Source of the DNA: Thermoproteota archaeon
GTDB lineage: Archaea; Korarchaeota; Korarchaeia; Korarchaeales; Korarchaeaceae
Length of the DNA stretch: 64,000 bases
Direction: 5' to 3'
NCBI GenBank assembly: GCA_027491435.1
Contig: JAOZFG010000035.1
Span: forward strand, 1 to 64,000
Shown piece after piece: positions 10,526 to 59,271 of the stretch. The position numbers were made by a program, and so were the translations under genes. Position 1 is the first letter of the stretch. Each line of letters opens with the position of its first letter. The notes below the pieces were generated by a model, which worked only from the letters and a program-made list of their open reading frames with translations, was not told the DNA's origin and searched no databases.

Positions 10526-11086
10526 ATGAGGGTCTCTGTCATCCTGGCTATAGTCTCTTTGACAGCCCTGATTTTCCTGCTCATGTGGAGTCAGCAGCCA
10601 GCCCCTCAACGGCCGGCTGCTGGGGAGGTGAGCAAGTTGGAGTTGAGGTCCGTCTTCGGCTATGGGGAGAGGATACCTGTCAAGTACACCTGTGACGGGG
10701 AGGATGTATCTCCTCCCCTCGAGTGGGAGCCCCTAAAAGGGGTGAAGTCTTACGCCCTCATAGTTGAGGACCCGGACGCCCCCATGGGCACCTTCACCCA
10801 CTGGGTCCTATACGACATCCCGGGAGACGTGAGGTCCTTGCCGGAGGGAGTTCCTAAGGAGGGGGAGACCCGATACGGGAAACAGGGATTGAACGACTTC
10901 GGGAGGATAGGTTATGGAGGCCCCTGTCCCCCTCCAGGGAAACCCCACCGCTACTTCTTCAAATTATACGCCTTGGACACCGTCCTCAACCTTAAGCCCG
11001 GGTTGAAGAGGGGCGAGGTGCTGGCAGCCATCAAGGGGCACGTAATAGCCCAGGCAGAGCTCATGGGAACCTATGGGAGAGGCTAG
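10526..11086 (+). CDS. YbhB/YbcL (PEBP, Raf kinase inhibitor-like) protein
   Basis: DPDAP, FTHW, GYGGPCPP and HRYFF motifs. Confidence 0.93.
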   Translation: MRVSVILAIVSLTALIFLLMWSQQPAPQRPAAGEVSKLELRSVFGYGERIPVKYTCDGEDVSPPLEWEPLKGVKSYALIVEDPDAPMGTFTHWVLYDIPGDVRSLPEGVPKEGETRYGKQGLNDFGRIGYGGPCPPPGKPHRYFFKLYALDTVLNLKPGLKRGEVLAAIKGHVIAQAELMGTYGRG

Positions 11087-11918
11087 CCACCGCCTCCAGG
11101 AACATCTCCCTCATTTTTAGGGCGTCCCTCTCCAACAAAGGGGATTCAGATACGACGAGCCATTTAGGCCTTACTTCAGCCATTATCTCAGCTAGAGGCC
11201 TGAAGTCCGGCCCGTAGCCTGAGCCTATCTCGTGATGCATCCTCTCACCGAAGCCAGACTTGGTGGGCTCGACCTCTGTGAAGTGTATCACTAGGCCGTC
11301 TAGGGTTCCTAGACCATCCTCTAGCTCTTGTATTACCCTCTCGTAATCTGCCTTACCCCTCAACACGCCCCCGTCCCTGACGTGAATGTGAGCGAAGTCA
11401 ACGGTGGGCACTACTAGATCCACTTCCTGTGCCATTCTTATGACGTCCTCTAGGGAGCCTATCTGAGATCTCTTACCAGTAGTTTCCGGCCCCAAGTCTA
11501 CCTCCAACCCCAGATCTCCCACCTCCTTGGCCACCTCAGATAGCTCCTTTATGGCCACCTTTAACGCCTCTTCCCTGCCCATAGACCCGTAATATCCTGT
11601 ATGAAACGTGACGTGTTTAGCTCCCATCTTATGAGCCGCTTTTGCCGCTCTGATTAACCTAAGAACGCTGGCCTTCCTCTTCTCATCGCTCTCAGACGCC
11701 AAGTTTATGGCGTAGGGGGCGTGAAGTGACAGGGCTATGTCGTTTTTCGACGCTTCCCTCCTTATCCATAGGAGGGTGGACTCCCTCCTGGGGATTGAGC
11801 GGACCGCCTGATATTCCATGCCGTCCAACCCTATCTCCTTCAGATATGAGAAGGCCCTCTCCTTTGGGGAATCTATCGGATAGCCTGCAGGCCCGAACCT
11901 CAACCTGTCCAGCTTCAT
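11061..11918 (-). CDS. nfo: Endonuclease IV family AP endonuclease
   Basis: SLHAPYAINL, FHTGYY, PETTGK, DFAHIH and ESP motifs. Confidence 0.88.
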   Translation of the reverse strand: MKLDRLRFGPAGYPIDSPKERAFSYLKEIGLDGMEYQAVRSIPRRESTLLWIRREASKNDIALSLHAPYAINLASESDEKRKASVLRLIRAAKAAHKMGAKHVTFHTGYYGSMGREEALKVAIKELSEVAKEVGDLGLEVDLGPETTGKRSQIGSLEDVIRMAQEVDLVVPTVDFAHIHVRDGGVLRGKADYERVIQELEDGLGTLDGLVIHFTEVEPTKSGFGERMHHEIGSGYGPDFRPLAEIMAEVRPKWLVVSESPLLERDALKMREMFLEAVASLSHRFP

Positions 11919-12491
11919 CTAGACACCCTGCGGGCATATTCCCAGGACCATCGAGACCGCCTTCCACCTGAGTTCCTCTATGGAGCCCGCGTTAACCAGG
12001 AAGTCGTCGGCCATCGCAATCGCATCCCCTAAGTGGAACATCACTATCTCTTTGTAATCCTCTTCCTGGAGTTTTTCAGCGCTTGAGACGTCGAAGCCCC
12101 TTCTACCTCTCTTCAGCAGCCTCAACAGCCTTATCTTCTTTGGGGCTAGTACTCCCAAGACCATTACCTGCTCCCCGAACCTCTTTTTAAACTCCAATAT
12201 TTCCTCTACATTCCTTATACCATTTATCACGTAGCTTCTGCCGTCTTCCATCTTCTCGATCACCAGCTTAGCTATTGCAGCCGGTCCCATTCTCTCCCTG
12301 AGCTCTATCCCCAGCTTCCTCATGTTCTCCCTGTTGACCTCCACTCCTCTTCTCTCCAGCTCCTCTCTTAGCACGTCGCTCATTCCCAGAATTTCGTAAC
12401 CCAGTTCCTCGCTAAGAGCCCTGGCAATTTCATCCTTCCCACTGCCTGGCAGTCCTACCAAGAGAACAACCCTTTTACCTAGCCCCTTCAT
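11919..12491 (-). CDS. Dephospho-CoA-kinase-like P-loop kinase (UPF0200 type)
   Basis: GLPGSGKD, MSDVLRE, INGIR and ADDFLVN motifs. Confidence 0.75.
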   Translation of the reverse strand: MKGLGKRVVLLVGLPGSGKDEIARALSEELGYEILGMSDVLREELERRGVEVNRENMRKLGIELRERMGPAAIAKLVIEKMEDGRSYVINGIRNVEEILEFKKRFGEQVMVLGVLAPKKIRLLRLLKRGRRGFDVSSAEKLQEEDYKEIVMFHLGDAIAMADDFLVNAGSIEELRWKAVSMVLGICPQGV

Positions 12492-12556: not shown

Positions 12557-13375
12557 ATGATAACTGTGATAGAGGTCAGCGCCGTAAGCGACAATGAAGG
12601 TATAATACCCTTCTCGGGTCCCCCCTTTAGGAAGGCCTTGGTGAGCTCCCTCTCGTCCCAGGACCCATTAGTGGCCAGAGTAGTCGAGATGCACTCTAAC
12701 AAGCTCATTGTGACCCCCCTTCTTAGAGATAAGGACTACGTGACCTGCGGCTACCAAGAGGAGATAGTCTATCCAGGGGTTACCTACAGGGGGAGGGTGG
12801 TTATACTCGGGGAGGAGCTCGTTAACCCAGTGAAGGGTTGGCTCTACAAGAAGCCAACCATAAAGATAGGGGAGGTCTCCTTTAGGGTATCCGGCTATTC
12901 AGTCACTCAGAAGGACGTCAGGGAGTTTATCCAGGAGAAGCCCTGCAAGAACTTCAGGATAAGGTTCAAGACCCCCACGTGTTTTAGGAGGGCTACTACA
13001 CCTTACTGCAGCCTCTACCCCAGAATGGGCCAGATAGTGGCATCCGCAATGAGGTCTTGGAATCAGGTGGCCCCTGACGACTTAAAAATAAGGGATTACA
13101 GGATCCTCACGGTGTGGTCTGACCTCAGCGTCGTCGAAACCGGCTACAACCTGTGTACAACGAAGCCTGTGGAGATAGGGGAGGGAAGGGGAATAGTGGG
13201 CTTCGTTGGGTGGGTTAACTACAAGGTTGTTGACCATCCGGAGTGGCACGCCGGGAGCCATGAGGAGATGACGACTTGGATGAACACCCTGCTGACCTTC
13301 GCCAGCTACATAGGTGTAGGCTACTTAAGGAGGGCTGGTTTTGGTGTAATATCGTACGAGGTTAAAAGAAGCTGA
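12557..13375 (+). CDS. cas6: CRISPR-associated endoribonuclease Cas6 (orphan)
   Basis: C-terminal G-rich loop GVGYLRRAGFG (GhGx5GhG), FKTPTCF and GFVGWVNY motifs, His at position 46, 272 aa. Confidence 0.85.
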   Translation: MITVIEVSAVSDNEGIIPFSGPPFRKALVSSLSSQDPLVARVVEMHSNKLIVTPLLRDKDYVTCGYQEEIVYPGVTYRGRVVILGEELVNPVKGWLYKKPTIKIGEVSFRVSGYSVTQKDVREFIQEKPCKNFRIRFKTPTCFRRATTPYCSLYPRMGQIVASAMRSWNQVAPDDLKIRDYRILTVWSDLSVVETGYNLCTTKPVEIGEGRGIVGFVGWVNYKVVDHPEWHAGSHEEMTTWMNTLLTFASYIGVGYLRRAGFGVISYEVKRS

Positions 13376-13774
13376 TTATGGGACCGTGAGGACGGCCCTC
13401 TCTGTGAGCAGGATGCCGCTCCTCAACTCCATGGCCTGATAATCCCTGGCCCTAAATATTTCCTTTAGCTCCCAGAAGACCTGCCAGGTGCTTTCGGGGT
13501 CCTTGCACGAGGATACCGTGACGGTTACCTTCCCCTGGTCTGGCCAAGTGTGCACGGCCACGTGCGACTCCCCTATAATGGCTATGCTCAGCACCCCTCC
13601 TTCATCCCTCTTCATAGTGAGCACTTCAAATAGGGTTAGCCCAGACCTTATCACGGAGGTTACCACCGCCTCCTGCACGAACTCCTGGTCGTTCAGCATG
13701 GCAGGGTCGACACCAACCATCTCACCGATCACGTGGAACTCGAAGGCCTCTACCATTTTCCACCGCACCTCCAC
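13376..13774 (-). CDS. speD: Pyruvoyl-dependent S-adenosylmethionine/arginine decarboxylase proenzyme (SpeD/SpeH family)
   Basis: GE|SHVAVHTWP autocleavage motif and a downstream Cys; real start may be the ATG at 13756. Confidence 0.75.
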   Translation of the reverse strand: MEVRWKMVEAFEFHVIGEMVGVDPAMLNDQEFVQEAVVTSVIRSGLTLFEVLTMKRDEGGVLSIAIIGESHVAVHTWPDQGKVTVTVSSCKDPESTWQVFWELKEIFRARDYQAMELRSGILLTERAVLTVP

Positions 13775-13850
13775 CTTCCTCCGGTTCTAAACATACAACT
13801 CCTCTTTAAAAACATTATGGGAAGCCAGCTCCTTCATTATCTCGCTTAGA

Positions 13851-14060
13851 TTAACTCTTAGAATATGATTCCAAGCTTCATGAAGTCCTCTAATAGGTTC
13901 TATATTAACTTAAACGGTAAAGATAATGGTTTCAGGCCTGTAAGCGGCTCTAATATGAGCTGAAGCCCAGTTAACGACTCAGAATATGAATTTCTTTAAT
14001 TAAACGTCTCTTATAAGGCTCTTTTTGCCGTAAAAGCAGTAGATTGTGCCCAGATTGTCA
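13851..14060. repeat. Degenerate tandem array, 7 x 30 bp, consensus about TWAACGNCTCWNATAWG followed by a variable 13 nt
   Basis: Gap-free alignment at 13851, 13881, 13911, 13941, 13971, 14001 and 14031: T1, A3 and A13 in 7/7; A4 and T14 in 6/7; C5, G6 and A15 in 5/7. Stops in all six frames. Confidence 0.7.
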
Positions 14061-14070
14061 AGTTGGATCA

Positions 14071-14138
14071 GGAGGGGGGTAGGGGGGGAGGGTGGGTTAA
14101 TATAGTCCCCCCCTGGGCCGGGAGGGGGGAGGAGGGGG
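14071..14138. other. G-tract/C-tract element around a TATA-like box
   Basis: Runs G6, G7, G3, G3, then TTAATATA, C7, G3, G3, G6, G5; AGGGGGGGA (14081-14089) is complementary to TCCCCCCCT (14106-14114). Confidence 0.75.
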
Positions 14139-14159
14139 TCATTAGAAAGTTCGGTCATA

Positions 14160-15239
14160 TCAGAAGTAACCCTCTAAGCTCCCGCTGACCCTAGAGTACT
14201 CCCCTCCCACACTCCTGATGAGCCTTTCAAGGAACCTGCTTTGTCTGTTAAGCTCCGGCTCCCCCCTAATAGCCAGCTCATTTGCCTTCATCCACCTTGA
14301 GATTATCTTGTTTACGCCATTGTAGGTCAGCTCTTTCCACTTAACTGGATCGTCGAGGGGCGCGGGCTCCTCGTCCAGGGAAATCCTGCCCATCTCTTGG
14401 TAGACTTCCCCCATGAAGGACTCGCCCGTCTGCCTCCTGTTTAGCAGGTAGGATATCCAGTCTAGGACTAGCTCAACCTTCACCTCAGCCTTCAAATTCC
14501 ATGGTGAGATTTGAAAGGTCTCCTCCCTGAGGGCCACGAACTCGTCCACCCTGACCAGCTCGTTGTACTTGTCGAACTCCTGCTGTGCCTGTTCCTCGAT
14601 AACCCTTATAGCCTCTAGGGGGAGGGAAAACTCCTTTGAAAAATCGCTAACGTTCCACCTTCCCAGAAACACGTTTATTCTGCCGCCAGCTTCCATCTCA
14701 ACGTCAGGAAGCAGCGGAGGAATCCTCCTAGCTAGCTTAAGTATCTCCTCAGGCCTCCTCTCCCCGACTACAGCCGAAGTTCCCCTCGACCCCTCGCTCC
14801 ACAGCCCATCCAGGTTTTCATAAGTCTCAAAGACGTCCTTGAACAGGTTAGAGTTGGCTATGACTTTTTTGGCCACGTCAAAGGAGGGGCCCGGCCTTAC
14901 CATTATCAGGGGATCCTGGCCGAAGGCCGCCGACGTGCCCCTGCCGGCTATCCTTCCGAGGAGCCAAATGGAGTCTATGACCCTCCACCCGTCTCCAAAC
15001 TCGATGGCCACAAACGGGTCCACCCTGCCGTATGTGCCCCCCCTCTCTAGAGAGGACTCTGTCCTTAAAAGCAGGCCTATCTTGACCTGATGACCTTTAA
15101 GCTTCAAATTCCTGAAAGCGTAAATGAAGAGGCCAGCTCCCAGGTCCAAAATCCAGGGAGATTTCTCATTGAGGGAATTTAGCAGATAGGTGGAATACTC
15201 GTGCCTCATCATTTCAATCTTCATTATTACCCGGGCCAC
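14160..15239 (-). CDS. Hypothetical soluble protein, 359 aa
   Basis: Long ORF with host-like codon use, GGGGAGG before the GTG, upstream TATA near 15270; no motif recognised. Confidence 0.75.
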   Translation of the reverse strand: MARVIMKIEMMRHEYSTYLLNSLNEKSPWILDLGAGLFIYAFRNLKLKGHQVKIGLLLRTESSLERGGTYGRVDPFVAIEFGDGWRVIDSIWLLGRIAGRGTSAAFGQDPLIMVRPGPSFDVAKKVIANSNLFKDVFETYENLDGLWSEGSRGTSAVVGERRPEEILKLARRIPPLLPDVEMEAGGRINVFLGRWNVSDFSKEFSLPLEAIRVIEEQAQQEFDKYNELVRVDEFVALREETFQISPWNLKAEVKVELVLDWISYLLNRRQTGESFMGEVYQEMGRISLDEEPAPLDDPVKWKELTYNGVNKIISRWMKANELAIRGEPELNRQSRFLERLIRSVGGEYSRVSGSLEGYF

Positions 15240-38225: not shown

Positions 38226-38346
38226 CGGGGCGTAGCTCAGCCTGGCAGAGCGGCCGGCTGTAGTGGGCGCGGTGCTCCGTGCTCCGGCAGCGGCCGCCCT
38301 GACAGATACCGGCAGGTCGGGGGTTCAAGTCCCCCCGCCCCGACCA
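38226..38346 (+). tRNA. tRNA-Tyr(GTA) with a 44-nt intron at 37/38 (38264-38307) and encoded CCA
   Basis: Acceptor CGGGGCG/CGCCCCG (C1-G72, the archaeal Tyr identity pair), D arm GCTC/GAGC, anticodon stem GCCGG/CCGGC, GTA at 38260-38262, GGTTCAAGT T loop, ACCA end; upstream TTAAAT/TTAATA box. Confidence 0.93.
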
Positions 38347-57898: not shown

Positions 57899-59152
57899 GT
57901 GGCCGAGATGAGGGTCAGACCTTCCGTGATCACGGGGAGCGTTAAAGCTCCTCCCTCAAAGAGTTACACTCACCGAGCCCTGACAGTTGGTCTTATAGCT
58001 TCTGGACGTTCTAGGATATGGAATCCCTCGTTAGGCAGGGACGTCAAGGCCACTTTAAGGGCCTTGGAGCTCTTCGGAGCCACGATCAGCGGATCTAACC
58101 CCTTGGTGGTGGAGCCCCCAGAGAGGCCCCAGGTGCCGGATGATGTGGTAAACTGTCAGGGATCTGGAACCACCATCAGGTTCATGACGTCAATAGCCTC
58201 CCTCACCCCTAAGGGGTACACCGTGCTCACGGGGAATGAAAGCCTCAGGAGGAGGCCCATGGGCCCCTTAATTAGATCTCTGGAGGACTTGGGAGTGAAG
58301 GCCTTTAGCACCAGGTTGAACGGCTTACCTCCGGTGGTGGTCAGGGGAGGAGGGCTTAGAGGCGGGAGTACCGAGATGCCCGGCCAGATAAGCTCGCAGT
58401 TCTTCTCGTCCCTCATGATAGCAGGAACCAGCTCGGAGATTGGCGTTAAGGTGAGGCCTCTGGGGGAGCTGGTCTCTAGGCCCTACCTTGAGATGACCTC
58501 TGCTGTGCTCTCCACGGCTGGTGTGAAGGTTGAATTGGGTGAGGAGATAATCGTGCCACCTGAGAGGCCCCAGGGGTTTGACTTCAAGGTGCCCGGGGAT
58601 TTGGGCCTTGCAGCTCCCTTAATGGTGGCCGCCTCAGTGACGGGGGGCAGCCTCAGGGTGGAGGTTGACCTCTCCCTCCCACAGGCGGACAACGCCGTCC
58701 TGCAGTTGCTTAGGGAGTTTGGAGTTCACGTTGAGGTCGGCGATGGGTACGTCTTGGTTGAGGGGAGGCCCAGAAGGGGAGCCAGGGTGGACCTGAGGGA
58801 TTTCCCTGACTTGCTCCCCTCAATGGCTGTTCTGGCCGCTTACAGCCCTGGCAGAAGCTTGATAACGGGAGTAAGACATGCCAGGTACAAGGAGAGCGAC
58901 AGGCTGTCAGTCATGGCCAGAGAGCTCAGGAAGGCAGGAGTTAATGTGGAGGAGCTGGAGGACGGGCTGGTAATTGAGGGCGGTAACGTTAGGGCGTCTA
59001 GGTTCAACGCTGAGGGGGATCACAGGGTCTTCATGGCCCTGATGGCCTTGGCCCTTGGGGCGGATGGTGAAAGCGAAATTGAGGGTGAAACCTACGTCTC
59101 GGACTCCTACCCCGAGTTCTTCGAGGACCTCAATAAGTTAAGGGGGGCTTAG
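57899..59152 (+). CDS. aroA: EPSP synthase
   Basis: PPSKSYTHR, SGTT, RRPM, SSQF, KESDR, DHR and SYP motifs. Confidence 0.92.
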   Translation: MAEMRVRPSVITGSVKAPPSKSYTHRALTVGLIASGRSRIWNPSLGRDVKATLRALELFGATISGSNPLVVEPPERPQVPDDVVNCQGSGTTIRFMTSIASLTPKGYTVLTGNESLRRRPMGPLIRSLEDLGVKAFSTRLNGLPPVVVRGGGLRGGSTEMPGQISSQFFSSLMIAGTSSEIGVKVRPLGELVSRPYLEMTSAVLSTAGVKVELGEEIIVPPERPQGFDFKVPGDLGLAAPLMVAASVTGGSLRVEVDLSLPQADNAVLQLLREFGVHVEVGDGYVLVEGRPRRGARVDLRDFPDLLPSMAVLAAYSPGRSLITGVRHARYKESDRLSVMARELRKAGVNVEELEDGLVIEGGNVRASRFNAEGDHRVFMALMALALGADGESEIEGETYVSDSYPEFFEDLNKLRGA

Positions 59153-59271
59153 CAGCTTCCGCGTTTCCCGAGCCCTTGCGGAGCTCAGTACTCCGCGGAA
59201 CGTGGCCGGGCTTAACTTCCGGGTTCGGAATGGGTCCGGGTGTGTCCCCGGCCACTATGGCCGCTCGCCCC
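59144..59271 (-). rRNA. rrf: 5S rRNA (stand-alone; ends approximate)
   Basis: Minus strand reads GCGGCCATAG...CACCCGGACCCATTCCGAACCCGGAAGTTAAGC...AGTACT...GGGAAA...GCTGC; termini pair; TTTATAAA box about 25 nt upstream. Confidence 0.95.

Follow-up and report, generated by a model that had tools for sequence, protein, structure and literature searches.

The stretch of DNA analysed here, referred to as the window, comprises 64,000 nucleotides (positions 1 to 64,000 of contig JAOZFG010000035.1, assembly GCA_027491435.1) and lies on the 158-kb contig C16 of an archaeal (Thermoproteota) genome that is 99.5% complete, with 1.64 Mb in 43 contigs. The subject is a cas6 gene in this window and the features that accompany it (Table 1). 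The gene abuts speD, and 385 nt of non-coding sequence separate speD from a gene for a protein of 359 amino acids (aa); within this non-coding stretch are a series of degenerate 30-nt units, a block of G/C runs and AT-rich boxes. A preliminary description, made from the sequence alone, had presented these as one candidate system: an orphan Cas6 that processes transcripts of a local 30-bp array, with the 359-aa protein as its partner. The parts themselves are where they were placed, cas6, speD and the 359-aa frame being borne out by profile matches and by the open frame, and both TATA-like boxes being found as given. The system as a whole holds up only in part.

The product of the cas6 gene is a genuine Cas6 by profiles and by fold, and it is predicted to cleave RNA. 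It scores 57.4 bits against PF10040 (cut-off 25) and 61.4 bits against TIGR01877 (cut-off 58.65), and matches the PADLOC Cas6 profile at 2.9e-24. Structure comparison had been proposed for both this and the 359-aa protein; the model of Cas6 matched solved Cas6 structures, while the 359-aa protein is without a match. The AlphaFold2 (AF2) model of Cas6 has a predicted local distance difference test score (pLDDT) of 82.3 and a predicted template modelling score (pTM) of 0.83. Its best Foldseek match is the Sulfolobus solfataricus Cas6 4ILM (E 2e-14, template modelling (TM) score 0.65), and Cas6 structures stand at the top of 65 matches in the PDB at E ≤ 1e-3, with TM-scores of 0.61–0.70.

The C-terminal glycine-rich loop, GVGxxRxxGFG, has invariant glycines among the orthologues of this speD-linked Cas6. 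When 11 orthologues are aligned, G253, G255, R258, G261 and G263 of the loop are kept and 43 columns are invariant. The available part of a study of the crenarchaeal proteins (PMC3652601) describes Cas6 without the canonical histidine, which uses a network of lysines and arginines with no single essential residue; the residues that matter in the S. solfataricus protein are helix-1 lysines and loop arginines. Here R25, a basic residue at the start of helix 1, and R258 of the loop are kept across five genera. K223 is also kept and a position resembling Lys51 is kept within the genus only, so that, as assigned from the sequence, these are candidate catalytic sites. Invariant cysteines include C64, C151 and C200.

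The closest known protein by both sequence and fold is the stand-alone Cas6 of S. solfataricus (Sso1437/Sso2004; 4ILL, 4ILM and 3ZFV), with which the window protein shares the two-RRM (RNA recognition motif) fold, the G-rich loop and the basic helix-1 residue. The differences are nevertheless considerable. Identity over the fold alignment is 16–19%, and the window protein has an extra segment (DHPEWH..SHEEM) at residues ~225–238 with two invariant histidines, H227 and H235. The equivalent of SsoCas6 Lys51, as that residue is described in PMC3652601, appears not to be kept outside the genus. Unlike the S. solfataricus gene, this one is a core gene family-wide and lies far from any array. The Cas6 of Pyrococcus furiosus (3I4H and 3PKM) is a fold relative at E 1e-9 to 4e-8 and has a Tyr-His-Lys triad (PMC3652601). 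According to the accessible text of PMC3150331 it is a stand-alone protein, not a Cascade-type subunit, and serves several effector systems in trans. The comparison with P. furiosus is incomplete in that cassettes of the window's genome also carry a Cas6 of their own.

With a profile of the speD-linked Cas6, 31 of 35 other genomes of the family yield one and only one copy, and the four genomes without a match are 70–82% complete. No match was found in two genomes of the sister family. Other markers are patchier, with Cas1 in 11, RAMP in 11 and DevR in 12 of 24 family genomes, and a repeat within three mismatches of one in the window's genome is present in nine of the 24, all of the same genus. 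Additional PF10040 copies occur alongside cassettes, while the speD-linked copy is constant. In the one-contig genome G012, for example, the extra copy is at position 474932, beside a cas island. The same island adjoins a large array of a different repeat (G012:C1:444085-449955, ~93 k-mer copies), and a remote three-copy array at G012:C1:1332075-1332222 has the genus-wide repeat ending in CGGGATTC.

The neighbourhood of the gene is also conserved. In a first set of 18 loci, cas6, speD and the 359-aa gene occur together in the same order and orientation in 14, the other four being cut by the end of the contig or locus. In a wider set of 12 loci from five genera, every locus has the UPF0200 gene next to cas6, and the side of the block on which a TIM-barrel homologue is found does not change; speD and the 359-aa gene are each present in 11, together with cas6, the exception being G022. 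The outer flanks of the block vary even within the genus. In G022 a LigT 2H phosphoesterase gene (PF02834, 2.4e-29) directly follows cas6, with speD and the 359-aa gene outside the block. LigT is part of the block in all four non-genus loci (L033, L034, L035 and L036) and only outside the genus; the copy in the window's genome is located on a different contig (G000:C5:92724-93272). Linkage in relatives had been named beforehand as a point on which the candidate system could fail, and on this point it held, since cas6, speD, the 359-aa gene and the G/C element stay linked.

The description of this Cas6 as an orphan is accurate for contig C16, over whose 158 kb neither a match to Cas1, RAMP or DevR (Cas7), nor a further PF10040 Cas6, nor a k-mer array occurs, but it does not extend to the genome, where arrays and cassettes with their own Cas6 are found on other contigs. 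CRISPR arrays of two repeat types are located where C4 ends and where C15 begins. C15 also has a type I cassette that encodes a separate Cas6 along with a Csa3-like protein, Cas3, Cas5 and Cas7. Cas1 is on C43 and C4, RAMP genes are on C43 and C25, DevR/Cas7 is on C43, C6 and C15, and a third PF10040 match is on C43. The CRISPR repeats of this genome presumably resemble the Sulfolobus type, ending in a ATTGAAAG tag on the transcribed strand. Solitary copies of either repeat, with up to five mismatches, were not found elsewhere in the genome. At G000:C22:11675-11898, at a contig end, an 18-mer occurs three times at 45–100-nt spacing, which may be an array or a coding repeat.

Taken together, the locus is tentatively read as the site of a core, stand-alone, trans-acting Cas6 of this archaeal family and not as a local system of Cas6 plus array, a reading held with somewhat less than even confidence. 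The gene would be the single-copy, vertically inherited Cas6 of the family, fixed in a housekeeping block with the TIM-barrel, UPF0200 P-loop, speD and 359-aa genes, and with LigT in other genera. Its product would bind and cut CRISPR repeat RNA transcribed elsewhere in the genome, for which the genus-wide CTTTCAA(C/T)..CGGGATTC repeat is a plausible substrate, and effector cassettes with their own Cas6 would come and go around it. The 359-aa protein would be tied to Cas6 by synteny only, with no functional link among the neighbours. In favour of this, the protein has a Cas6 fold closest to the S. solfataricus stand-alone enzymes, with the helix-1 and loop basic residues kept, arrays and cas cassettes are present on other contigs, the intergenic region has no conserved RNA structure, Rfam match or small open reading frame, the local array is not conserved although Cas6 is, and the neighbours change while Cas6 stays. 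Genome G017 fits the trans-acting reading because it has the genus-wide repeat, in three copies, with the speD-linked protein as its sole Cas6.

Several observations weigh on the other side. The cassettes of C15 and C43 and that of G012 at 474932 carry their own Cas6; since the cassettes examined have one, a further nuclease for CRISPR RNA (crRNA) looks redundant. In G009, G014, G022 and G023, which are 90–96% complete, the speD-linked Cas6 is intact and is the sole Cas6, and searches of these four genomes found no match to Cas1, Cas2, RAMP or DevR, none to Cas3 over the cut-off and no genus-wide repeat. All markers were found in G012, which served as the positive control, except with PF09704 (Cas5), a search that is uninformative for this reason. 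In G023, searched over its full 1.117 Mb (4 contigs), there is no array of at least three copies, no convincing two-copy repeat and none at a contig end; the k=12 finder flagged one site, of GC-rich low complexity, and the same finder recovers the arrays of the window's genome. These absences are to be read with the caveat that metagenome-assembled genomes (MAGs) are often without their CRISPR islands, and that 4–10% of each of the four is missing. The synteny of the block lasts to 37% identity in Cas6 and 21–25% in the 359-aa protein while the flanks rearrange, and synteny of this depth may mean a functional tie. A rigid spacing in the intergenic region, described below, also stays without explanation.

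The redundancy, the intact gene in the four genomes and the depth of the synteny are also what a second explanation draws on, in which the Cas6 has been exapted as a CRISPR-independent, sequence-specific endonuclease of host RNA, or as a chaperone, and is a core gene for that reason. This is possible but on balance unlikely. The ends produced by Cas6 cleavage, a 2',3'-cyclic phosphate and a 5'-OH, are those acted on by 2H phosphoesterases and kinases. The UPF0200 protein, the LigT of four genera and possibly the 359-aa protein may share a theme of RNA processing, for which the constant adjacency of UPF0200 and the presence of LigT in every block of the other genera speak. So do the single copy missing only from genomes at most 82% complete, the presence of Cas1, RAMP and DevR in half or fewer of the genomes, the association of extra PF10040 copies with cassettes, the four genomes without another cas marker, the near-closed G023 without an array, and the orthologue-specific insertion with its two histidines, together with the invariant cysteines. 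The available portion of a review of CRISPR exaptation (PMC8730458) describes no case of a solo Cas6. It does describe a Streptomyces derivative of type I-E, cas5-8 with a STAND NTPase, that is exapted and has no adaptation module or array. Those are multi-gene effectors linked to defence, unlike the single Cas6 among housekeeping genes found here, whose independence from CRISPR is hypothetical.

The exaptation explanation is weakened by the frequent loss of CRISPR islands from MAGs, given that the four cas-less genomes are 90–96% complete, and by the lack of a candidate host RNA, as neither a solitary repeat nor a conserved structure was found beside the gene. The UPF0200 protein, whose closest solved structures are 3LW7 and 3H0K (UPF0200 protein SSO1041) at ~4e-22, resembles a nucleotide kinase and shows no sign of RNA kinase activity. 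LigT is unlinked within the genus, and it is common for relatives to retain blocks of housekeeping genes that have nothing to do with one another. In its most extended form the idea is slightly less probable again: the whole family would have domesticated Cas6, as a core protein independent of CRISPR, to cut or bind RNA, kept with UPF0200, ancestrally with LigT, and with speD and the 359-aa protein, and its target would be a host RNA transcribed perhaps from the promoter of the G/C block.

Table 1. Features of the cas6 locus, with positions in the window
Feature	Position	Strand	Remarks
Xylose-isomerase-like TIM-barrel / AP endonuclease 2 family gene	11061..11918	-	PF01261 at 5.7e-30; outer member of the conserved block
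UPF0200-type P-loop (adenylate-kinase-related) gene	11919..12491	-	AAA_17 at 5.3e-19; divergent from cas6
cas6, 272 aa	12557..13375	+	Pfam, TIGRFAM and PADLOC profiles plus fold match
speD (S-adenosylmethionine decarboxylase)	13376..13774	-	PF02675, TIGR03330; abuts the cas6 stop
speD TATA-like box, TTTAAAAA (on + strand)	13805..13812	-	invariant in genus loci; putative promoter
Six degenerate 30-nt units	13857..14036		autocorrelation; core roughly TAAACG-n-CTCTAATATG, then ~12 variable bases
23-nt G/C block, G6-TA-G7-A-G3-T-G3	14074..14096		kept in genus loci
AT box, TTAATATA on + / TATATTAA on -	14097..14104		abuts the G/C block; promoter-like, strand and function putative
Variable stretch, AT box to stop of 359-aa gene	14105..14159		holds a C7 run and the second G-rich tract, 14114-14138
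359-aa gene, lineage-restricted	14160..15239	-	conserved frame without family or fold match

The 30-nt repeat between speD and the G/C block is a real though weak signal, seen in the window's genome only. In an autocorrelation over 13840–14045 the z-score is 4.66 for lag 30 and 4.93 for lag 60, a level reached by none of 500 dinucleotide shuffles; the adjacent lags of 29 and 31 are unremarkable, so the period is exactly 30. To this extent the 30-bp array of the preliminary description is present, but its units are degenerate and it has no significant counterpart in the genus relatives examined. The six in-register units have a mean pairwise identity of 43.6% (range 20–57%), Tandem Repeats Finder (TRF) at a minimum score of 30 called no repeat at 13850–14040, and a repeat search at the site found a two-copy 12-mer and nothing more. 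In a crude genome-wide scan, 256 of 54,346 sampled windows (0.47%) score as high or higher. The homologous spacers of 12 genus relatives that keep Cas6 have no significant period (lowest shuffle fraction 0.08), with z-scores at lag 30 of 0.37 to 1.97. The periodicity would stem from a degenerate tandem duplication peculiar to this genome, within the long upstream region of speD.

The units do share with CRISPR arrays, mini-arrays and solitary repeats a regularly spaced short core with variable sequence between, near a cas gene. They differ in their period, 30 nt as against about 60–65, in their degenerate ~18-nt core and in their lack of conservation. The three or more near-identical repeats of 23–50 nt with unique spacers that make a CRISPR array are not present, the k-mer array finder flags C4, C15, C22, C33 and C43 and not this site, and the units have no resemblance to the CRISPR repeats of the genome. 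Two other interpretations of the units were considered and set aside. A regulon is not indicated for the core motif, exact copies of which number only three in the genome. C/D-box small RNA, for which a period of 30 or 60 nt fits the box spacing, was rejected as a look by eye found no RUGAUGA/CUGA boxes on either strand.

The processing of this array by Cas6 was the centre of the earlier proposal, according to which the minus-strand TATATTAA directs transcription of the array and Cas6 processes the product, with the 359-aa protein as partner, outside of CRISPR. The periodicity that exceeds all 500 shuffles, the TATA-like box at the edge of the array and the linkage of the genes in relatives are consistent with it. 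Against these stand the lack of significant periodicity in all 12 genus relatives that keep the three genes, and units that are 44% identical, invisible to TRF and equalled in 0.47% of genome windows. The units are unlike the CRISPR repeats of the genome, no conserved RNA fold or Rfam family is present on either strand, and one genus that keeps Cas6 gave no match to the 359-aa protein. The array as a substrate of Cas6 is not supported by these results, and this proposal is very improbable.

The G/C block and its adjoining AT box are better conserved than the units. Among the 28 double-G-run sites of the genome, 14074–14096 is the sole one with at least six G in both runs; further G tracts extend over 14114–14138. 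In all 13 loci from the genus, a block of 23–24 nt is followed immediately by an AT box, and the block may take the form G7-A-G7-A-G7 or C7-N4-G6-A-G5/6. The TATA-like box of speD is invariant in the same 13 loci, ~50 nt upstream of the speD ATG, and the distance from the first base of the block to the end of this box is 260 or 261 nt in every one. Sequence identity in the spacer between them is only 35–46% between clades, yet gaps occur in just 4 of 264 alignment columns. On the other side, the distance from the block to the stop of the 359-aa gene, which includes the 8-nt AT box, is 64–82 nt in 12 loci, and the sequence is not conserved. In the other genera the interval from the 359-aa gene to speD retains one G/C run. 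The block with its AT box is probably a promoter-like or regulatory cis element, with strand and function to be taken as provisional; it would probably be a distal promoter or regulatory site on the strand of speD and the 359-aa gene.

It is also conceivable that a promoter at the block drives a C-rich leader or small RNA through the 260-nt spacer on the speD strand, and that this RNA instead of the 30-nt array is the local partner of Cas6, of the 359-aa protein or of both. The fixed distance between block, AT box and speD in all genus loci and the G/C run in other genera would suit such a transcript. The AT boxes of clades B and C run from T-rich to A-rich on the minus strand, and runs of T4–T5 are seen by eye on the minus strand of the spacer. 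In clade A, however, the AT box could point either way, and the spacer diverges widely between clades. RNAalifold with 10 sequences, on both strands and over four column ranges, returned consensus energies of 0 to -0.7 and no structure, and in seven of eight tests the energies were no better than those of column shuffles. Rfam had no match at E ≤ 10 over 13700–14300, and no small open reading frame in the intergenic region is common to the clades. None of a conserved fold, covariation or a described family, as expected of a structured non-coding RNA gene, was found in 13775–14160. This transcript is therefore improbable.

Over the window, Rfam at the gathering threshold found nothing beyond one tRNA and a 5S rRNA. 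The tRNA match covers 118 nt (38226–38343) and is probably intron-bearing; the 5S rRNA gene is at 59147–59268. A second site with a G-run and a TATA-like sequence is present at G000:C20:41700-41930, where a GC-rich, structured-looking intergenic sequence is followed by GGGGGCTAGGGGG and TATATAA. Three MAG contigs, those of L012, L013 and L015, terminate at the G/C block, 67–96 nt beyond the stop of the 359-aa gene. The homopolymers of the block probably break short-read assemblies.

An archaeal replication origin has an AT-rich unwinding region and inverted origin-recognition boxes with G-strings, and is usually beside orc1/cdc6. There is little to indicate an origin at this site: the G-rich block is on one side only, no inverted partner was seen, and the GC skew tracks gene strand only and is uninformative. 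Among the neighbours scanned, within 10–18 kb, none is Orc1/Cdc6.

The speD product, an S-adenosylmethionine decarboxylase of the pyruvoyl type, matches PF02675 at 1.5e-24 (86.8 bits, cut-off 25) and is barely above the cut-off of TIGR03330 (75.7 bits as against 75.65). Its true start is likely the ATG at 13756, which is preceded by GGAGGTG, because the reverse complements of GGCCTTCACCAT and of CACCTCC are conserved in the alignment of relatives. The 359-aa gene likely starts at the ATG at 15224, giving a protein of 354 aa.

The 359-aa protein has no match in Pfam, NCBIfam or PADLOC, and a Pfam search with 13 members of its alignment gave only single-member matches at E ≥ 0.02. A profile of 13 orthologues finds only eight proteins among 1.84 billion representatives. 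The AF2 model (pLDDT 81.8, pTM 0.79) has two long antiparallel sheets and helices. Foldseek gave no match for it at E ≤ 1e-3, the best being at E 3e-3 with a TM-score of 0.14; VIA against 48,161 chains gave no clear match (best Z 5.2, over 93 residues), and a search of the ESM Atlas gave no usable match.

Orthologues of the 359-aa protein are intact in 15 of 20 genomes of the genus, at 37–40% identity, and are weak (21–25% identity) in three of the four genomes of other genera that were searched first. A C-terminal tail, SGSLEGF (window 14160–14185), is kept in all 11 aligned genus sequences, at the DNA level as well, and is lost in two sequences from other genera. The profile had no match in five genomes of one genus, four of which keep Cas6. 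Because the protein was not found in a genus whose genomes keep Cas6, it is not an obligate partner of Cas6, as it would have been in the system first proposed.

A stand-alone Cas6 is already known, but no description of a single-copy, syntenic core Cas6 across five genera was found in the literature searched, as far as its accessible text extends. The cas genes are typically accessory and move horizontally. A Cas6 that is single-copy and core-like across five genera is thus unusual, the adaptation and effector genes of the same genomes being patchy.

Apart from Cas6, the rigid spacing of 260–261 nt between the G/C block and the speD promoter poses a minor puzzle of its own for archaeal gene regulation. 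If the speD-linked Cas6 does act in trans, crRNA maturation in this family would be anchored in the core genome while the effector modules are exchanged, and the stability of the repeat type across the genus would be explained. If instead it is independent of CRISPR, nature would offer here a clean example of a Cas6 taken over for host RNA metabolism, and UPF0200 and the 359-aa protein, two families so far uncharacterised, would become more accessible to study.

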